NCBI GenBank assembly: GCA_001795455.1
Contig: MGPB01000019.1
Coordinates: 36,630-100,629, forward strand
Reading direction: 5' to 3'
DNA length: 64,000 nucleotides
Source of the DNA: Curvibacter sp. GWA2_63_95
GTDB lineage: Bacteria; Pseudomonadota; Gammaproteobacteria; Burkholderiales; Burkholderiaceae_C
Each line of letters starts with the position of its first letter. Position 1 is the first letter of the stretch. The notes under the pieces are model-generated. The model did no database searches, was not told the DNA's origin, and worked only from the letters and a program-made list of their open reading frames with translations. Shown here in pieces: positions 55,651 to 64,000 of the stretch. The translations under genes were made by a program, and so were the position numbers.

Positions 55651-56355
55651 ATGGCCATAGAGCGCTCGACCCTGGGCCGCGTGGACTACCTGCCCACCTA
55701 TGCGGCGATGCAGGCGTTTACCAACGAAAGAGCCGTCGGCCCCGCATCCACCCAGCGTGACCAGCTATGGATTTGTGAGCATCCGCCAGTATTCACCCAA
55801 GGGCTCGCGGGCAAACCGGAGCACATTTTCCTGCCCGGCGACATTCCCATCGTGCAAACCAACCGGGGCGGCCAGGTGACTTACCACGGCCCCGGCCAGG
55901 TGGTGGGGTACCCGCTGATCGACCTCAAACGCGCAGGCTACTTCGTCAAGGAATATGTCTACCGCATCGAAGAAGCGGTGATCAAGACGCTGGCGCACTT
56001 GGGTGTGACCGGCCACCGCGTGGCCGGTGCGCCCGGCATTTATGTGCGGCTAGACGACCCCACGGGCCATGCCCCACTGGCGCAGCGCCCCCAAAACGGT
56101 GCGGCCAGCGCCGCCGAGCCGGACTTCACCGGTCTGGGCAAGATCGCCGCCTTGGGCATCAAGGTCAGCCGCAACTGCACCTACCACGGCGTAGCGCTCA
56201 ACGTGGCCATGGACCTGGAACCCTTCTCACGCATCAACCCTTGCGGCTACACAAAGCTGCAAACCGTGGACCTTTCTACAATCGGGGTCTCTGTTGGCTG
56301 GGCTGATGCCGCCGACGTTCTGGGCCACAAGCTCGCCACTTACCTCACACCATGA
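55651..56355 (+). CDS. lipB: Octanoyltransferase LipB
   Basis: [37 protein letters not shown]. Confidence 0.95.
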
Positions 56356-57344
56356 GCCAAGACACACCCAACGCCACCGTCCGCGAGGTGCAATCCACCG
56401 AAACCTACAAGGCCACCGACAAACAAAAGGCCGCGGCCAAGCTGTCGCGCATTCCGGTGAAAGTGGTACAGGGCGAAGTGCTCAAGAAACCCGACTGGAT
56501 CCGTGTCAAGGCCGGCAGCCCCAGCACCCGTTTTTACGAAATCAAGGACACATTGCGCGCCAACAAGCTGGTCACCGTGTGCGAAGAAGCCAGTTGTCCC
56601 AATATCGGCGAATGCTTCGGCAAGGGCACGGCCACCTTCATGATCATGGGTGACAAATGCACGCGCCGCTGCCCCTTCTGCGACGTGGGCCACGGCCGCC
56701 CCGACCCGCTGGACGCGAACGAGCCCGACAACCTGGCCAAGACCATCGCCCAGCTCAAGCTGAACTATGTGGTGATTACCAGCGTGGACCGGGATGATTT
56801 GCGCGACGGCGGCGCCGGCCACTTTGTGGAATGCATCCGCAAGACCCGCGAGTTGTCGCCCAAAACGCAAATCGAAGTCCTGGTGCCCGACTTCCGCGGC
56901 CGCGATGACCGCGCTTTGGAAATTTTGAAGGCCGCGCCACCCGATGTGATGAACCACAACCTGGAAACCATTCCGCGCCTCTACAAGGAAGCCCGCCCCG
57001 GCTCGGACTACCAGTTCAGCCTGAACCTGCTCAAGAAGTTCAAGGCCCTGTTCCCCGACGTGCCGACCAAGAGCGGCCTGATGGTCGGCCTGGGTGAGAC
57101 CGACGAAGAAATTTTGGAAGTGATGCGCGACATGCGCGCCCACAACATCGAGATGCTGACCATCGGCCAGTACCTCGCACCCAGCACATCACACCTACCC
57201 GTGCGCCGCTACGTGCACCCCGACACCTTCAAGATGTTCGAGGAAGAGGCCTACAAAATGGGCTTCAAGCATGCGGCCGTGGGCGCGATGGTTCGCAGCT
57301 CGTACCATGCCGATGTGCAGGCCGGGCACGCGCTGGGCATGTGA
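56352..57344 (+). CDS. lipA: Lipoyl synthase LipA
   Basis: [27 protein letters not shown]; stop TGA at 57342-57344 overlaps the transposon end. Confidence 0.97.
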
Positions 57345-57411
57345 ATGATTAGAAGTTATTGCAACAATCCAGTAGTTGTTGCGAAAAATATTAGAAGTTA
57401 ACGCGACATTT
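57340..57411 (+). repeat. Tn7/Tn5053-type transposon end: TGT terminus plus three transposase-binding-like repeats
   Basis: TGTGAATG then ATTAGAAGTTATTGCAACA (57348), TCCAGTAGTTGTTGCGAAA (57368), ATTAGAAGTTAACGCGACA (57390); spacing 20 and 22 bp. Confidence 0.75.
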
Positions 57412-57418
57412 GGGCGCA

Positions 57419-59107
57419 ATGGACCCCGAAAAAGGCCTGAAATACTCGGGATTCTCCAATGGAATGCCTCGAATTTCGGCCTTTCCAACTGGGCCAAATT
57501 TTTGGCGAATTGATTGGTTCGGTGACATTGCCTATCCAGATCGATCCAACCGCCGGAAACAGCCCTCGATGTTTGTTCACCTCTCCAGGGTTAAAGACGA
57601 GCGCTTCCGCAACGATCCATCCGTTCTTTTGTCACCAGATGGCACCGCTCCCGCCCAATTCCAGAAACGTGCCTGGATTTCCATCGGAACCTTGCCACTA
57701 CTGCGGATAGGTGACATCTGGCGCGATGGCCAGCTCGATGCCCAACCAGACTACGAGCTGGAAAAGTTCAAGAACATCCAGATCGACGCAAAAACCACCA
57801 CGTTGATCAAAGCGGGGCTGAATATTGGCGACGCAGGATTTCTGCTGCCTTTGGCCGAACATCCTTGGCACCTGCAATGTACGCAGTCCTACTGCGTTAT
57901 GGTGAACTTGCCTGCTGGGGAACGATTGATCATTCCCTGCATGGAGTTGATTCGCTTCTACTTTGGATCTTCCAGCAACTTGCTTTCCAAGCTCTTCATT
58001 CCGCCGCTGGATCGTAAGTCCCTGTACAGCACCGCGTCATTTGATGTCCGCTCGAAACATCTATTCCTTCAACTTGCCGAAAAAATATCAGGCACATCAG
58101 CCGCCGACATTGGACGCTTGCATCTGAGCCCACTCGCATGGCGTGCGGCGGCAGTGGTGAGTACCTCGCTCCTCAAGGCATCGGTGGCTCAACAATCGAT
58201 CCACCCCCAGGCGCTTTTCCCATTCGAAGGCGAGACGACTTTGGTTGCCGCCGGCAAATGGTTGTCTTTTGCAGGACAACCTCGCTCCACGTTCTTGGTT
58301 TACAACCTGCGCTCTTGCGAGCATCCCTTTCCATTCAGGTCTTTGAGCTACAAGGTCACAGGCAGTCGTGCCCAACCTAACAGTCCTATTGGGGACTCAG
58401 ATCAATCGCGAGCACAGCCCGGGCACGCTGCAGCTCGAGACGCACAAGATCAACCATTGGTTGAGCGCGATGCGTCCAACAATCTTTCGCCAAGAATACG
58501 AACCTACCGGATTGAGCCACGATTTCCGGATCTCGCACCGAAACCAATCTGGAAAAACCGCACGCTAACTCATGCAGAATGGCTTGAAAAGCTAGATCGG
58601 CGACGAAGCACTTCGCCGATCTCTCATGGCTCCGTAGGTGACCCCGGTTCAGAGCGTCGAATTCGCTCTGTTGATTTTGCTTTACTTAGCAAAATCAACC
58701 CATCCTTTTTTGAAAGGGCCCCGGAGTTTTTACGCCCGATCGTTCAAGACCTATGTGCCCTCCAAGACACCGCAGTTGAGCTACTAACAGAAAGCGATGA
58801 GGATGGATGGACTGTCCCGATATCCGTACTCGCCGATGAAGATGGAGAAATTGATCCCAAGCTATTTACACAAACCAGTGAAAAGGACGCTCGACTCAGA
58901 AGAGTCGGTGCTTTTTGGCTCAAACGCACTGAAAAATACATGTGCCTAGTGGTCATTGAATCAACGCCCGCGTGCATCAAACTATGTCCAACAGTCGAAT
59001 TCAATAGGGGAGATATTTTGAGAATTCTCCGAAATGTAGCTGCTAATTTTCTGGATAACCCAGATAGCACTGGACACCTGCCAAGTCTTTTAAAAACTAT
59101 GTCCTAA
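57419..59107 (+). CDS. Hypothetical protein, distant TnsE-like target selector (tentative)
   Basis: About 560 aa (like TnsE); collinear weak motif matches from memory: LIIPCMELIRFYF vs TnsE YHIPQLELARSLF, RRVGAFWLKRTEKYMCLVVIE vs RVIKAVGVQRNGSEFVLLEVD; ATG 57419 (TTG 57410 alternative). Confidence 0.5.
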   Translation: MDPEKGLKYSGFSNGMPRISAFPTGPNFWRIDWFGDIAYPDRSNRRKQPSMFVHLSRVKDERFRNDPSVLLSPDGTAPAQFQKRAWISIGTLPLLRIGDIWRDGQLDAQPDYELEKFKNIQIDAKTTTLIKAGLNIGDAGFLLPLAEHPWHLQCTQSYCVMVNLPAGERLIIPCMELIRFYFGSSSNLLSKLFIPPLDRKSLYSTASFDVRSKHLFLQLAEKISGTSAADIGRLHLSPLAWRAAAVVSTSLLKASVAQQSIHPQALFPFEGETTLVAAGKWLSFAGQPRSTFLVYNLRSCEHPFPFRSLSYKVTGSRAQPNSPIGDSDQSRAQPGHAAARDAQDQPLVERDASNNLSPRIRTYRIEPRFPDLAPKPIWKNRTLTHAEWLEKLDRRRSTSPISHGSVGDPGSERRIRSVDFALLSKINPSFFERAPEFLRPIVQDLCALQDTAVELLTESDEDGWTVPISVLADEDGEIDPKLFTQTSEKDARLRRVGAFWLKRTEKYMCLVVIESTPACIKLCPTVEFNRGDILRILRNVAANFLDNPDSTGHLPSLLKTMS

Positions 59108-59426
59108 CCCAGCCATCGGAGTTGTGCACATTCCAAAAATCACAACGCTCATGTTGAGAATTTCTGACCAGCCCGCTCATATTGAGCAATGCCAGTTGAT
59201 GGAAATCAACCACTGACCCATCCGACCATGCTCGATACCGGAATACGCAAATTGCATGGTGTACGGCATTCCATCGGCTACTATCTGTTCTAAATTAATA
59301 CAGGTAGTAGAGGCAATTCAAAGAATGAACAGTTTGAGCGCTCGGTATGATCCGCGTCACAAGCGGTTCGATTGAGCACAGAAACTCAGCAGCCCAACTG
59401 TATTTAATCGGTACAAAGGAGGCGTC

Positions 59427-62075
59427 ATGCCCAATGGAGGCGCATTGGACGAAGAACATCAGCGACCAGATGCAGAAATTAAAATTTCTGCACGTGTGCT
59501 CATTCAGTTGGGCGAGGAGCTTGTGACCGATGGAGAGCAAGCGATCCTTGAATGCGTTAAGAACGCTTATGACGCTGATTCCCCCGGTTGCAAAATTCTG
59601 ATCCGCACAAAGTCCTCTGGCCATTTTGAGCAGGAGGATAGAGCCGGACGCCTTCTCGACTTCCGGGAGGCGGCTGAGAACGTCCACGTATCCTTCACGA
59701 AAGAAGGGCACGCCATTGACGTGTCAGACAACTGGCGAGAGGAACAAGAAATCGCAGCCACTGATCTTATACGACGGAGGCTCGATTGGACTGGCTTCAT
59801 TACTATTGAGGACAGTGGTGACGGAATCGCCGCAGAGAAACTGCGCAAGTCCTGGCTCACCATCAGCGGATCAAACAAACGATCTACCGAAGGCAAGCGG
59901 AAGGCAACGACTACAAAGGGGCGCACCCCACTTGGCGACAAGGGCGTAGGCCGGCTGGGTTCGATGAAACTCGGCGATATCTTGGAAGTTGTAACGAGCA
60001 CGAGCGAGGATCAGCCATTGGCGTCAGCAGTGTTCAGATGGGCGGATTGCGAAAAAGCAGAGACAGTCGATGAGATTCCAGTCTTTGTAAAAACTGAACT
60101 CCCAAATCCAGATCGATTCAAGGGCACACGAGTTTCTGTTTACGGCTTGAAAAATGCTGGGCAATGGGCGAGCGCCAAAGGCGCGAACGCCATCAAGAAT
60201 AGCCTAGCCGCCTTGGTATCTCCATTTGAGGCAAAAGCGCAGTTCCCCGTAACTGTGGACGTCAATTCCGACAAAACCAGTCTGGTCTCAGTCACTGAAA
60301 CGCTGCTTGCGCGAGCGGTCGCCGACTTTCGATTCGAATGGGTGACCGGGACAAATGGCACATCGGAATTGCAGTGCGTCGCACGGTTCCGGGAGAAGCT
60401 ATTTCGCGCCACCATCGGAAGTAGGGCTCAAAAACAAAAGTCCAAGATCGTCTTTGATCAGGATAATGGTGATGGATTTCTTGCATGGCTCAGCGATCCC
60501 AAGCGACTGAAGCGCTACAAAATTACTCCCCGTCCGGACTCCGAATGGCTTGTTGAAGTTCGGCAAACCATTCCGTGGTCGAAAATCAAAACCGTCGCGC
60601 AAGGAGCCGAAGCAGAAGATCCCGGCGCCTTGAGCGCGGCTTTCTATTTCTTCAATCTACGGGATATCTCAAGCGACGAAAGCACTGACTCCGATCCAAC
60701 GGAATCAGAATCAGATGCGGAAGCCACGGCGGGGCTTGGAATTGATCGGGCGACGATCAAGCGGATGGCCGGCATATCCATTTTGCGGGATGGATTCCGA
60801 GTCCGGGCTCAAGGCGATTGGCTAAGACTTGCCGAGGGTATGACCACGGGCAGCACGTACCAATTGCGCGTGCACAACACATTGGGATATTTCGCCTTGA
60901 CCGGCGAACACAACTACAAACTCGTAGAGAAGTCCGACCGAGAGAGTTTCGTAGAGAACGATGCCTATCGCGGCTTTCATGCCATCGCTGTAGAGTGCAG
61001 AACTTTCGCAAACGACGCGCTGGAGTCGGTTCGACGGGCGATGGACAAATACGCCACGCTGGTTGTCCCGTCCGACGCTATTAGCCCTACGCCCGAGCGC
61101 TCGTTCGAAGTCGTCGAGACCTCGGTAGAAAGCGCGGCGACAGCTAAGCAAGACACCCAGTCCATCGTCGACGCCCTGGAGCAGGGGCTAGGACTTGTCG
61201 AGAGGCAAGACGCGCGCGCCACAAACGTACTAAAAGCAGCTCTCCAGAAAGCTCAGACCGTGCAGCGCAACTTGGACGCAGGTCAGCAAGCGAGCAGCGC
61301 CGTACGACTTCTCAGGCAGGAGTTTGCCGACAGCAAAGAGCGCACGCTGTCACTATATGAGAGCGCAGCGGTCGGCCTCAGCGCACGCGGTCTGGCGCAC
61401 GAACTGCGCACCCACATTGTGGAGATCCGAAGACGGATCGTTGGCATAGAGGAGCTAATCAAGGAGGGCCGGGCGGACGTCAAGAGCGTGGCCCGCCACA
61501 CAAGATCCATCCGCGCTGCGTGTGCGAGCATCACCAGCGCCGCCGCGATTATCGATCCGCTGCTCCCGCGAACTCGAACAGTGAAGGAGTCGATTGACCT
61601 CTTCGACTTTGTCACCCAATACAAAGAGAACCGCGCTGGCGCTTTAGAGCGTGAAGGCATTAGTTTCGAGATCAAAAACGCGACTGACAAGGCCGTCGCC
61701 AAGATCAATAGGGGCCGACTACTAGCCGTTTTCGATAACCTGATTCGAAACAGCGTCTATTGGTTGCGCCGCGGCACTGATGTGCTTGAGATCAAACGTC
61801 CTAAACGTATCCGCATAGAAATTACTCCAATTGGATTTTCAGTAGCCGATAGTGGCCCGGGGGTAGACCCGGCCTACGAGGACAACATATTTGACATGTT
61901 CATCTCAGCGAAGCCGGCATCGGAGCGCGGGCAAGGCCTGGGACTATTCATTTCGACGCAATTACTCGCAGCGGATGGCTGCAGCATTAGCCTGAGTGCG
62001 GATAAGAACCAAGATGGTCGACCGTACAAATTTATTGTGAACCTTGGGGCAGTCATGCAGGGAGGAACTAAATGA
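59427..62075 (+). CDS. MORC/GHKL ATPase fused to a histidine kinase
   Basis: N-terminal ECVKNAYDA, EDSGDG, GDKGVGR, KGTRV; central S5-like RDGFRV..DWL..EKSDRE; C-terminal AHELRTH, DNLIRNS, DSGPGV, GQGLGL; RBS AAAGGAGG. Confidence 0.88.
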   Translation: MPNGGALDEEHQRPDAEIKISARVLIQLGEELVTDGEQAILECVKNAYDADSPGCKILIRTKSSGHFEQEDRAGRLLDFREAAENVHVSFTKEGHAIDVSDNWREEQEIAATDLIRRRLDWTGFITIEDSGDGIAAEKLRKSWLTISGSNKRSTEGKRKATTTKGRTPLGDKGVGRLGSMKLGDILEVVTSTSEDQPLASAVFRWADCEKAETVDEIPVFVKTELPNPDRFKGTRVSVYGLKNAGQWASAKGANAIKNSLAALVSPFEAKAQFPVTVDVNSDKTSLVSVTETLLARAVADFRFEWVTGTNGTSELQCVARFREKLFRATIGSRAQKQKSKIVFDQDNGDGFLAWLSDPKRLKRYKITPRPDSEWLVEVRQTIPWSKIKTVAQGAEAEDPGALSAAFYFFNLRDISSDESTDSDPTESESDAEATAGLGIDRATIKRMAGISILRDGFRVRAQGDWLRLAEGMTTGSTYQLRVHNTLGYFALTGEHNYKLVEKSDRESFVENDAYRGFHAIAVECRTFANDALESVRRAMDKYATLVVPSDAISPTPERSFEVVETSVESAATAKQDTQSIVDALEQGLGLVERQDARATNVLKAALQKAQTVQRNLDAGQQASSAVRLLRQEFADSKERTLSLYESAAVGLSARGLAHELRTHIVEIRRRIVGIEELIKEGRADVKSVARHTRSIRAACASITSAAAIIDPLLPRTRTVKESIDLFDFVTQYKENRAGALEREGISFEIKNATDKAVAKINRGRLLAVFDNLIRNSVYWLRRGTDVLEIKRPKRIRIEITPIGFSVADSGPGVDPAYEDNIFDMFISAKPASERGQGLGLFISTQLLAADGCSISLSADKNQDGRPYKFIVNLGAVMQGGTK

Positions 62076-63898
62076 AGCCACTTGAGGCACTGAAGCTACT
62101 AGGTGCAAAACGAGTTATATGGATTGATGACCGTTTTGCAACTGCATCGGTAGCGGAGTTGGTAGCCCTTCTCACTGAGAACGCAGATATCGCGGAAGAG
62201 GTGTGTCCCGAACCGATGCAAGCCTCCCTGCGCAAGATTGCTGACAGCGATGAGACTGGCAATCACGAGTTGACGCAGCTGGTCGCAGACCTGACTGAAG
62301 AGGCGCGCATCACGTTACTGCGCCTCGTTCAGGTGAAGTTGGAAAGCACTGACACTCCAGACCTATCTGACGAACAGATCGAGAGCGTGTGCGCACACCT
62401 TTCCATCGCAAAGGAGGATCGTTGGCCCTTCGATAAAGCAGAGGCATCCATGCTGGCTCTCGCAAAGGATGGGAGCGACAACGAGCTCAGCTACATCATC
62501 GACCTGAACGATGCCCAGGGTGCTGACAACAACAGGCGAGGACTGGAGCTCCTGAAGGTACTTCATAGTGCAGACTCAAAAGCCACAGCGTTGTTGCTAA
62601 CGCATTACGCGACCAAGAGCAACGAGGCGGAAAAGGAACTTGAGTTGCGCGATGAGCTCTCAAAAGACGGTCCATTCAACGTATCGCCAGTGTGCGTCAT
62701 CGCGAAAGAGCGTCTCTATCCCGAGGCTGATGCGGCATCAACGGCAGAAGGACGTGACAGCGCAGTCGCCCAAGCGTTACGCATCGCGATCAAGAGAGCA
62801 GGACTCCGCCGCAATGTTCACGAAGTCCTAGTTCGCGTCCAAGACCATATTGAAAAAGCGTTCAAGGCCGCAAGCGATGACCTACTTGAGGTCCCGCCTG
62901 AGCAGTTGGACGAGTATGTGATTGATCGGGCCTATGCGGAAGGCGTCTCTGAACTTCATGTGGTGGAACGCGCGCTCACCGCGTCCATGTCGGAATCGTT
63001 CCGTCGCCTATTTTCAGTCGATGCGGATACCCGCGAAAACGAGCGTCGTCTGCGTTTACTTCGCGACGTGCCGCTCGATATCGACGCGACAGTCCACCAC
63101 AAAAAGCTGGAAACGTTCAGAAAGCTAGAGGTCTGGGAATCAGAAGATTTAGTCAACAGGGGCTGCTCTCCCCTGGCATGCGGCGATGTCTTTGAAATGG
63201 ATGCTCAGGACGGCACTCAGGCTCATCGCTTTATATTGCTGGCGCAACCTTGCGATGTCACGTTACGCCCAAAGGGCGATCGAGATGCCGAAGTCGGCTT
63301 CCTGGTAATGCTCAAGCAGCTTTCAAATATAAATGTTGTTCCCAATCAAAAACAAACCCGACTACCCTTCCTGCTAGATGGAAAGCAATGGGTGTGCGAA
63401 CTGAGGAAGACGGCTTCGGTTCGACTCGACCTATTGGATCTAGTGTCTTACCGAACTGATGGCCGGCTTCAGTATGACGACAACCAGGTGATACCGGATT
63501 GGCTACTGCCAGGTCAGCGGGTCAGCGGAAAATCGGTTTTCGGTAGCCTCAAGAAGGCGCTAGATGCTCGGGCGGCCGCTAAATCTGCGCCTGCCAAGGA
63601 CATAAAGGACTCCAGGTGTCAACTGACGCTTTTGGCCGGAGGCCCCTTCCAGCATATCGCTCATGGGACATTCATAGAGGCCAAGCAAGCGAAGGATGCA
63701 GAACCAGCAGTTCCCGCTGGCTTTACCTGGAACCTGCGGCGCGTAGGTCGGGTGCGGATGCCTTATGCATCGGCATTGTTAGGTAGCTACCTTGCAGTTG
63801 TGGATAGGGATGCCTTCGACTTGGACTACCTCAGACCGAAGGCCCCGCAGGCAGCGGAGGCCGGGGCGTGTGGTGGCGGTCAGACAGCGTGCTCTTGA
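62072..63898 (+). CDS. Receiver-domain protein with a long insert and an uncharacterised C-terminal domain
   Basis: VIWIDD, IIDLN, GLELLKVL, LLLTH, IAKE receiver elements; C-terminal GDVFE..ILLAQPCD; 4 bp overlap with the kinase gene. Confidence 0.75.
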   Translation: MKPLEALKLLGAKRVIWIDDRFATASVAELVALLTENADIAEEVCPEPMQASLRKIADSDETGNHELTQLVADLTEEARITLLRLVQVKLESTDTPDLSDEQIESVCAHLSIAKEDRWPFDKAEASMLALAKDGSDNELSYIIDLNDAQGADNNRRGLELLKVLHSADSKATALLLTHYATKSNEAEKELELRDELSKDGPFNVSPVCVIAKERLYPEADAASTAEGRDSAVAQALRIAIKRAGLRRNVHEVLVRVQDHIEKAFKAASDDLLEVPPEQLDEYVIDRAYAEGVSELHVVERALTASMSESFRRLFSVDADTRENERRLRLLRDVPLDIDATVHHKKLETFRKLEVWESEDLVNRGCSPLACGDVFEMDAQDGTQAHRFILLAQPCDVTLRPKGDRDAEVGFLVMLKQLSNINVVPNQKQTRLPFLLDGKQWVCELRKTASVRLDLLDLVSYRTDGRLQYDDNQVIPDWLLPGQRVSGKSVFGSLKKALDARAAAKSAPAKDIKDSRCQLTLLAGGPFQHIAHGTFIEAKQAKDAEPAVPAGFTWNLRRVGRVRMPYASALLGSYLAVVDRDAFDLDYLRPKAPQAAEAGACGGGQTACS

Positions 63899-64000
63899 CC
63901 TCATCAACGCTGATCTACCCAACTGAGAAATTCTCTCACTCTGGGAGATCTAGATGTTGGGACAACATGGCGCCATTAAGGGTCAGCGGATATCCCTTCA

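Follow-up and report, generated by a model that had tools for sequence, protein, structure and literature searches.

Sites for the transposase TnsB are packed in the Tn7R end of Tn7, which adjoins glmS, and spaced in Tn7L. In ShCAST, a type V-K CRISPR-associated transposon (CAST), the tnsB-distal left end adjoins the target (T-LR). Tn6022 has a selector, TnsF, that resembles an inactivated tyrosine recombinase and is encoded in an operon with TniQ. For Tn7-like elements found at attachment (att) sites such as parE, nrdB, yhiN, guaC and yciA, TniQ clade and att site correspond, and the cargo varies and is rich in defence genes (Benler et al., 2021, PMC8649781). A distant TnsE lies in Tn6022 at the end distal to the other transposition genes and was shown to support TnsE-type untargeted transposition (PMC11014353). 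Here we analysed a 64,000-nt stretch of DNA (the window) from Curvibacter sp. GWA2_63_95, in which the 3' end of lipA (lipoyl synthase) meets what looked like a transposon end. The window corresponds to positions 36630-100629 of contig MGPB01000019.1 (C19) in a 3.88-Mb assembly of 40 contigs, and C19 extends 26 kb beyond it; C19 coordinates minus 36629 give window coordinates, and coordinates without the C19 prefix are those of the window. We concluded, with a probability of roughly 0.87, that an intact 20.8-kb Tn7-like transposon of the heteromeric TnsA/TnsB type has its lipA-proximal end at the junction, and that it comes from a clade with a dedicated att site at the 3' end of lipA.

The 330-aa lipoyl synthase is encoded at 56352-57344 on the plus strand (Pfam Radical_SAM, E 2.9e-26, and LIAS_N). 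The gene is preceded by lipB and is the sole copy in the genome (a single genome-wide tblastn match). Its occupied 3' end reads ...CAC GCG CTG GGC ATG TGA, and the T of ATG (57340) opens the terminus TGTGAATG (57340-57347, plus strand) of the lipA-proximal, tnsA-distal end. Three predicted TnsB-binding sites of 19 nt each follow on the plus strand: ATTAGAAGTTATTGCAACA (57348-57366), TCCAGTAGTTGTTGCGAAA (57368-57386) and ATTAGAAGTTAACGCGACA (57390-57408), imperfect repeats spaced 20 and 22 nt from start to start. The 5-bp target-site duplication is GGGCA, with its left copy at 57335-57339. GC content drops from ~0.61 to 0.52 at the junction; GC at third codon positions (GC3) is 0.82 in lipA and 0.51 in the open reading frame (ORF) that follows. 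The conserved lipA codons R-S-S-Y-H-A-D-x-Q-A (57294-57323, plus strand), 14-43 bp from the centre of the duplication, are a candidate recognition sequence to which a selector may bind; since the RSSYHA codons occupy 57294-57311, that centre lies 26-43 bp from them. An earlier sequence-only reading of this stretch had described the lipA end GGC ATG TGA with its T starting the terminus, three imperfect repeats at 20 and 22 bp spacing, a base-composition shift at the junction and the same 26-43 bp distance. The coordinates agree with it to the base (repeats at 57348, 57368 and 57390), the shift is the one given above, and the TnsD/TniQ insertion geometry that it suggested is compatible with the data.

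A degenerate consensus of the three sites occurs in three places in the window, the same three, even with two mismatches allowed (0.05 expected), and three matches were seen in 0 of 100 shuffled controls; this chance test is circular because the pattern was derived from the sites themselves. A less circular test scanned the 3.88-Mb genome with a weight matrix made from six end sites: the top five matches are divided between the two ends of the element, inverted at one relative to the other, and none of the five is internal to it. A 12-nt direct repeat (TGGGCGCGATGG at 57280-57291 and TGGGCGCAATGG at 57411-57422) flanks the junction and the three sites, and is probably due to chance.

The opposite end was read directly from the contig. 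The element ends with ...GGCTTGCTCACA at C19:114761 (terminal ACA of ...CTCACA, C19:114759-114761), directly followed by the second GGGCA (C19:114762-114766) and the displaced original 3' tail of lipA, CTGTGTGA (C19:114767-114774). Read inward, this terminus is TGTGAGCA (C19:114754-114761), the inverted counterpart of TGTGAATG, and three further predicted TnsB sites come after it: AGCCACATGGTTTGCGACA, ATCACCAGTTAATGCGACA and TTCATAAGTTACCGAGACT (within C19:114670-114753). With TGT...ACA termini and GGGCA at both sides, the element therefore spans C19:93969-114761 (20,793 bp), of which 57340-64000 is in the window. Low-GC3 ORFs extend to ~C19:114,500, beyond which GC3 is host-like again. A mismatch-tolerant search of the whole genome for inverted copies of the end plus three repeats returned mostly noise; one match, at C19:114692, pointed to the true far end.

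LipA translated from the rejoined flanks ends ...GHALGTV*, versus ...GHALGM* from the occupied gene; the transposon end therefore donates the stop codon, and part of the final ATG TGA (last codon and stop) comes from it. A 306-nt empty-site query built from the rejoined flanks aligned unbroken in four same-genus genomes (G001, G004, G010 and G023), in which lipA runs straight into the downstream flank. In these relatives the native LipA tail is ...GHAMGASAA* or similar, and a hairpin repeat and a convergent 157-aa gene come next. The ACA end with its duplication and displaced lipA tail, the donated TGA and the uninterrupted relatives had all been foreseen by the sequence-only reading, as had the presence of tnsA, tnsB, tnsC and tniQ in the island, where all four (tnsC being of the tniB type) are found.

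In the host genome, the hairpin past the original lipA stop (GGATAGCTACCAATTTGGTAGCTATCC ... ACGGGGGCTAGCGCCC, C19:114780-114830), just outside the element, belongs to a repeat that resembles repetitive extragenic palindromic sequences and occurs in many copies there and in three same-genus genomes (G013, G021 and G024). These three genomes carry 6-10 kb between lipA and the downstream gene, which would suit the idea that the Curvibacter island is a recombinase-integrated or otherwise variable region, not a transposon, that follows lipA by chance. Their intervening genes are unrelated (SNF2 helicase, HipA, AraC), begin after the native lipA stop and hairpin, come without Tn7 genes or ends and are not members of the lipA-element family, whereas the host element encodes TnsABC-TniQ, is bounded by TGT/ACA termini and a 5-bp duplication and, in the ORFs scanned, shows no integrase domain. 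The chance-region explanation is refuted by the ends and the duplication, and its probability is close to nil.

The transposition genes are all on the minus strand and overlap as a single operon in mid-element, transcribed towards lipA. The 233-aa tnsA product (C19:105982-106683) matches Pfam Tn7_TnsA-like_N (E 3.5e-13), a TnsA C domain and NCBIfam TnsA_like (1.3e-20, below the curated cut-off of that family). The 636-aa tnsB product (C19:104075-105985) has Mu-transpos_C and helix-turn-helix domains and an IS481-type DDE core (E 2.7e-16), from which it is predicted to be a DDE transposase with a Mu-transposase C-terminal domain. Next come the tniB-type tnsC (299 aa, C19:103176-104075; Pfam TniB, E 2.3e-66) and tniQ (340 aa, C19:102157-103179; Pfam TniQ, E 8.1e-27). 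The TniQ sequence profile matches solved TniQ chains, and in Foldseek its structure model comes closest to TniQ and TnsD complexes (probabilities 0.97 and 0.92). Scans of element ORFs with Pfam or PADLOC detected no Cas, integrase or resolvase domain; for Cas this refers to domains, as a search aimed at CRISPR arrays was not made. The element thus combines TnsA, TnsB, an AAA+ adaptor, TniQ, TGT...ACA ends with inverted multiple sites and a 5-bp duplication, the features of Tn7-like elements. A composite of two elements was considered because tnsA is 8 kb from the far end; it was ruled out by the lack of internal ends in the weight-matrix scan and by a relative from Massilia frigida (L043) that also has cargo between that end and tnsA.

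A homologue search with TniQ (E <= 1e-5) found >600 homologues, the top 120 being 54-100% identical and mostly from Burkholderiales; the TniQ clade spans Betaproteobacteria, Gammaproteobacteria and one Acidobacterium. Using a profile from 25 of the homologues, we retrieved 80 genomic loci with 10-kb flanks and scanned them by tblastn with the element proteins. lipA was located within 10 kb downstream of tniQ in 21 of the 80 loci, always convergent with tniQ. Directly beside lipA in 18 of these 21 was a homologue of the 562-aa protein, a family core gene product that is encoded in the window at 57419-59107 (plus strand; ATG at 57419, with an in-frame TTG at 57410 as well). Hosts with the lipA site include Polaromonas, Duganella, Massilia, Undibacterium, Paraburkholderia, Xanthomonas dyei, X. 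albilineans, Chromobacterium, Kingella denitrificans and a Methylobacter metagenome-assembled genome (MAG). For 30 further genomes with lipA beyond the 10-kb flank we located lipA itself; 29 had the gene, and it was followed by the 562-aa homologue (23 genomes), an element end only (2) or a TniQ-like gene (2). In the closest relative, Rhodoferax sp. U11-2br (TniQ 89% identical), lipA and tniQ share one contig, ~30 kb from each other and oriented as expected. An element end was present at 44 lipA 3' ends, from genomes with a clade TniQ of 38-89% identity (Burkholderiales, Xanthomonas, Chromobacterium, Kingella and others). The occupation of lipA at the same position in dozens of genomes with a related TniQ bears out the survey that the sequence-only reading had proposed, and because dozens of related elements share one spot, we regard lipA as their dedicated landing site.

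Other arrangements were seen beside lipA. In an Acidobacterium and two other genomes (L092, L122 and L126) a TniQ-domain gene, 25-31% identical to the host TniQ, directly follows lipA in place of the 562-aa homologue; the acidobacterial locus with a TniQ-like gene in this slot is from Tunturiibacter. lipA may also serve other lineages of Tn7-like elements, or elements with another selector arrangement. Another locus (L042) has a different Tn7-like backbone (TnsA/B/C 26-38% identical) in which a second TniQ, from the lipA clade (54%), comes after the backbone's own; this looks like modular acquisition of a selector.

To compare insertion points, we aligned the 44 lipA 3' ends on the RSSYHA codons and measured the offset of the terminus start from the first base of the Arg codon. 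The offset was +47 nt in ~30 of the 44 and +46 to +52 in most others, and the element had the same orientation at every occupied site surveyed. The consensus of conserved DNA over the 44 sites reads ATGGTg CGnnnnagcTAcCAnGCn GAncaGCAGGC. Terminus plus first site is xxT GTG AAC GAT CAG TAG in many elements, thus the end encodes a short new tail and a stop. Six elements, the host element and five relatives, have both ends and a perfect 5-bp duplication, with lengths of 8.7-20.8 kb (the hosts include Massilia, Undibacterium, Xanthomonas dyei, X. albilineans and a Lysobacterales MAG). Their right flanks are mutually unrelated; conservation is therefore limited to the lipA side, and no other side can carry the recognition sequence.

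The polarity of the insertion was also constant. In the minimal Xanthomonas elements the far end is ~125 bp upstream of tnsA, which makes it the right end by the usual convention; lipA thus faces the left, tnsA-distal end. Across the family, three contiguous sites are found at the lipA-proximal end, and a gap of ~24 nt follows the first site at the tnsA-proximal end. With three packed sites at the target-facing end, the layout therefore resembles that of Tn7R, and the functional polarity is probably as in Tn7, with the tns operon at the opposite end.

The element might instead be a fixed relic of one old insertion that was inherited vertically and no longer homes to lipA. Its presence as one copy in the host genome agrees with this, as do the non-TGT termini of some relatives. 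But the site is empty in same-genus genomes and occupied in distant orders by elements that differ in cargo, duplication and size (8.7-20.8 kb); all five core ORFs of the host element are full length compared with its relatives, its termini and duplication are perfect, and one MAG carries two 99.99% identical copies at different sites. We consider a relic very unlikely.

We propose that active homing works as follows. The 340-aa TniQ would bind the lipA codons for R-S-S-Y-H-A-D-x-Q-A and recruit the TniB-type AAA+ adaptor TnsC, which would position TnsA/TnsB for cut-and-paste insertion ~47 nt past the first base of the Arg codon, in a fixed orientation and with a 5-bp duplication. The three-site packed end, far from tnsA, would face lipA, overwrite the last unconserved residues of LipA and supply an in-frame stop, so that the only lipA copy presumably stays functional and the tail-altered LipA works. 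The TnsE-like protein inside the lipA-proximal end would probably give a second targeting pathway away from lipA, by analogy with Tn6022.

TniQ was arrived at as the likely reader of lipA by elimination among the conserved genes. The 8.7-kb Xanthomonas elements hold only tnsABC-tniQ, the TnsE-like gene, a methylase and one other gene, and TniQ is therefore the only conserved protein of the TniQ/TnsD family. In minimal elements tniQ is the last gene of the operon, and the next genes are variable and on the other strand. A 466-aa gene after tniQ was rejected as a partner selector of the host element: it encodes a full-length type II methyltransferase that is found besides only in the Polaromonas element. 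In three relatives (L031, L053 and L084) TniQ is 49-55% identical to that of the host element while TnsB and TnsC are 42-48% identical; in L084 the TnsE-like protein is 25% identical and the lipA site is the same (lipA is out of range in L053 and L031).

Several observations weigh against a dedicated lipA site read by TniQ. The choice of TniQ was made by elimination, its structure model is of modest quality (pLDDT 67), and Faure et al. (2023, PMC10293859) argued that short TniQs often serve a separate selector as adaptors. The spacing varies: the host element is at +46 and a few others are at +48 to +55 (two relatives, L107 and L101, at +55 and +51), and the Rhodoferax sp. U11-2br element, with a near-identical end sequence, is at +66, past the native lipA stop. 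Imprecise targeting, later indels or scars left by earlier insertions may account for the offsets of the latter three. Some lipA-proximal termini are not TGT, being TGA in L083, L086, L093 and L110 and TAT in L066 and L119; these may be variant termini or immobilised copies. The presumed TnsE pathway lacks direct support here, because a plasmid search (PLSDB) with TniQ and the TnsE-like protein gave hits of <=31% identity, one of them a fragment cut by IS21, and no plasmid-borne family member.

The strongest competitor for the role of reader is the 562-aa end-proximal protein, with TniQ serving only as the adaptor to TnsC, as for TnsF in Tn6022. Its gene, just inside the end and usually co-directional with lipA, is the sole other non-TnsABC gene conserved throughout the family and always sits at the lipA-proximal end, and the 340-aa TniQ falls in the short class that Faure et al. 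tie to partner selectors (PMC10293859). We judge this alternative improbable: the 562-aa protein falls to 22-27% identity among elements still at the same +47 site, its slot is held by a TniQ-domain gene in L092, L122 and L126, and its C-terminal region, as discussed next, points to TnsE.

The 562-aa protein of the window has no match in Pfam, NCBIfam or PADLOC. Pfam TnsE_C matches other family members at E 2.9e-5 (Kingella, residues 482-565) and 0.057, both below the Pfam cut-off. An AlphaFold model built with 26 homologues has a pLDDT of 73, and its highest-probability Foldseek matches are C-terminal domains of TnsE, with E-values of ~0.7-2 that are not significant; the sub-threshold Pfam matches and these E-values leave room for the protein being a lipA reader. 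A search of PDB sequences with the profile of this protein gave nothing real. Two UniRef members that are 52-54% identical to it bear the name 'TnsE C-terminal domain-containing protein', and its position and length fit a TnsE homologue distal to tnsABC-tniQ, the same layout as that of Tn6022, where a distant TnsE supports untargeted transposition (PMC11014353). Because of the TnsE_C, Foldseek and UniRef matches and this layout, we call the protein TnsE-like with fair confidence.

A second targeting pathway would fit an observation in MAG OZ260072.1, in which two 99.99% identical family copies (L031 and L034) are in one chromosome, one ~44 kb from lipA and the other 2 Mb away; the distant copy is a non-lipA insertion, because its tnsA-proximal end lies inside an ORF. 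It is also conceivable, though doubtful, that the 562-aa protein derives from TnsE and has become a sequence-specific reader of lipA instead of a replication-fork selector, being expressed by read-through from lipB-lipA. Read-through is considered because the native terminator hairpin of lipA is displaced to the far end of the element and no promoter-like site is found between lipA and the 562-aa gene. If the protein does read lipA, Tn7 target selectors would gain a new class, with expression governed by the insertion site of the element.

The remaining genes of the element are exchangeable defence cargo. Between tniQ and lipA there are, besides the 562-aa ORF next to the end, a 466-aa type II methyltransferase (C19:100631-102031, minus strand; PADLOC E 1.7e-100, full length), a 608-aa protein without a family match (62072-63898, plus strand) and, translationally coupled to the latter, an 882-aa protein (59427-62075, plus strand) with an N-terminal GHKL ATPase (HATPase_c_3, BbrUII/HgiDII-like) and a C-terminal histidine-kinase-type ATPase. 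These three genes may form a restriction-like defence system. The same trio (methyltransferase, 882-aa double ATPase and 608-aa protein) occurs in a Polaromonas element (L023) at 50%, 32% and 23% identity, with two genes inverted. The 8 kb from tnsA to the far end (C19:106889-114491) include genes for an Rv2179c-like exonuclease, Mrr_N-HNH, a C92 peptidase, DUF3800, a HEPN_Swt1-like protein and two unknowns. In the Massilia frigida element, a TOTE-type AEP primase-helicase (E 2e-97; L043:4046-6460) is located between the tnsA-proximal end and tnsA, and a Schlafen/AlbA_2-HATPase_c_4 gene is present as well; cargo flanks its tns operon on both sides.

We found no paper linking lipA or lipoyl synthase to Tn7-like elements in a literature search whose coverage did not extend to Peters et al. 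(2014, Mol Microbiol 93:1084). lipA does not appear as an att site in Benler 2021 or Faure 2023 (main text and supplements), nor in the main text of the Acinetobacter study or of the archaeal Tn7 preprint; the sole paper pairing 'Tn7-like' with lipA uses that name for a lipase. The suspicion of the sequence-only reading that lipA was not among the described att sites is thus in line with the literature searched. A near-universal and highly conserved gene, lipA would extend the short list of homing sites that Tn7-like transposons recognise through a protein. The clade defined here is large (its >600 TniQ homologues come from Beta- and Gammaproteobacteria and one Acidobacterium) and pairs two unusual features, an insertion within the coding sequence that writes a new C-terminus and stop, and an att gene that faces the tnsA-distal end. 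If the 340-aa TniQ reads lipA by itself, it would offer a small, protein-guided integration module of fixed orientation, whose target sequence many bacteria are likely to have. In genome annotation, defence cargo can predictably be sought in an island that directly follows lipA.

Compared with type V-K CAST, the lipA element shares a short TniB-like TnsC and the placement of its left, tnsB-distal end beside the target but has TnsA and presumably protein-guided targeting, with no Cas domain in the scanned ORFs. With Tn5053/Tn402 (TniA, TniB, TniQ, TniR) it shares the TniB and TniQ families and ends with repeated 19-nt sites, whereas it has TnsA, targets a chromosomal gene instead of a res site and, unlike those TniR-bearing elements, shows no resolvase domain in the scanned ORFs. 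Tn6022/AbaR elements too have a short TniQ, a short TnsC and an insertion within a coding sequence, and their distant TnsE homologue at the far end (PMC11014353) probably has its counterpart in the TnsE-like protein. Tn6022 disrupts comM, whereas the lipA element keeps lipA intact, and no TnsF-like gene follows tniQ in the lipA elements examined, the next gene of the host element being the type II methyltransferase. The element is not a prototypic Tn7, which has a long TnsD, targets glmS and places its tnsA-proximal end by the att gene: it targets lipA, has a TniQ of 340 aa versus ~500 aa for TnsD and a 299-aa TnsC of the TniB type, inserts inside the coding sequence, to which its end gives a new tail and stop, and presents its tnsA-distal end to lipA, opposite to Tn7 at glmS. 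It resembles Tn7 in its heteromeric TnsA/TnsB, its AAA+ adaptor, its putative selector with a TniQ domain, its ends of the TGT...ACA type that hold several TnsB sites, its 5-bp duplication and single orientation, and in its fixed distance (~14-43 bp for the lipA element) from conserved C-terminal codons of a housekeeping gene. The elements at parE, nrdB, yhiN, guaC and yciA follow the same logic as the lipA element, and differ from it in the target gene.

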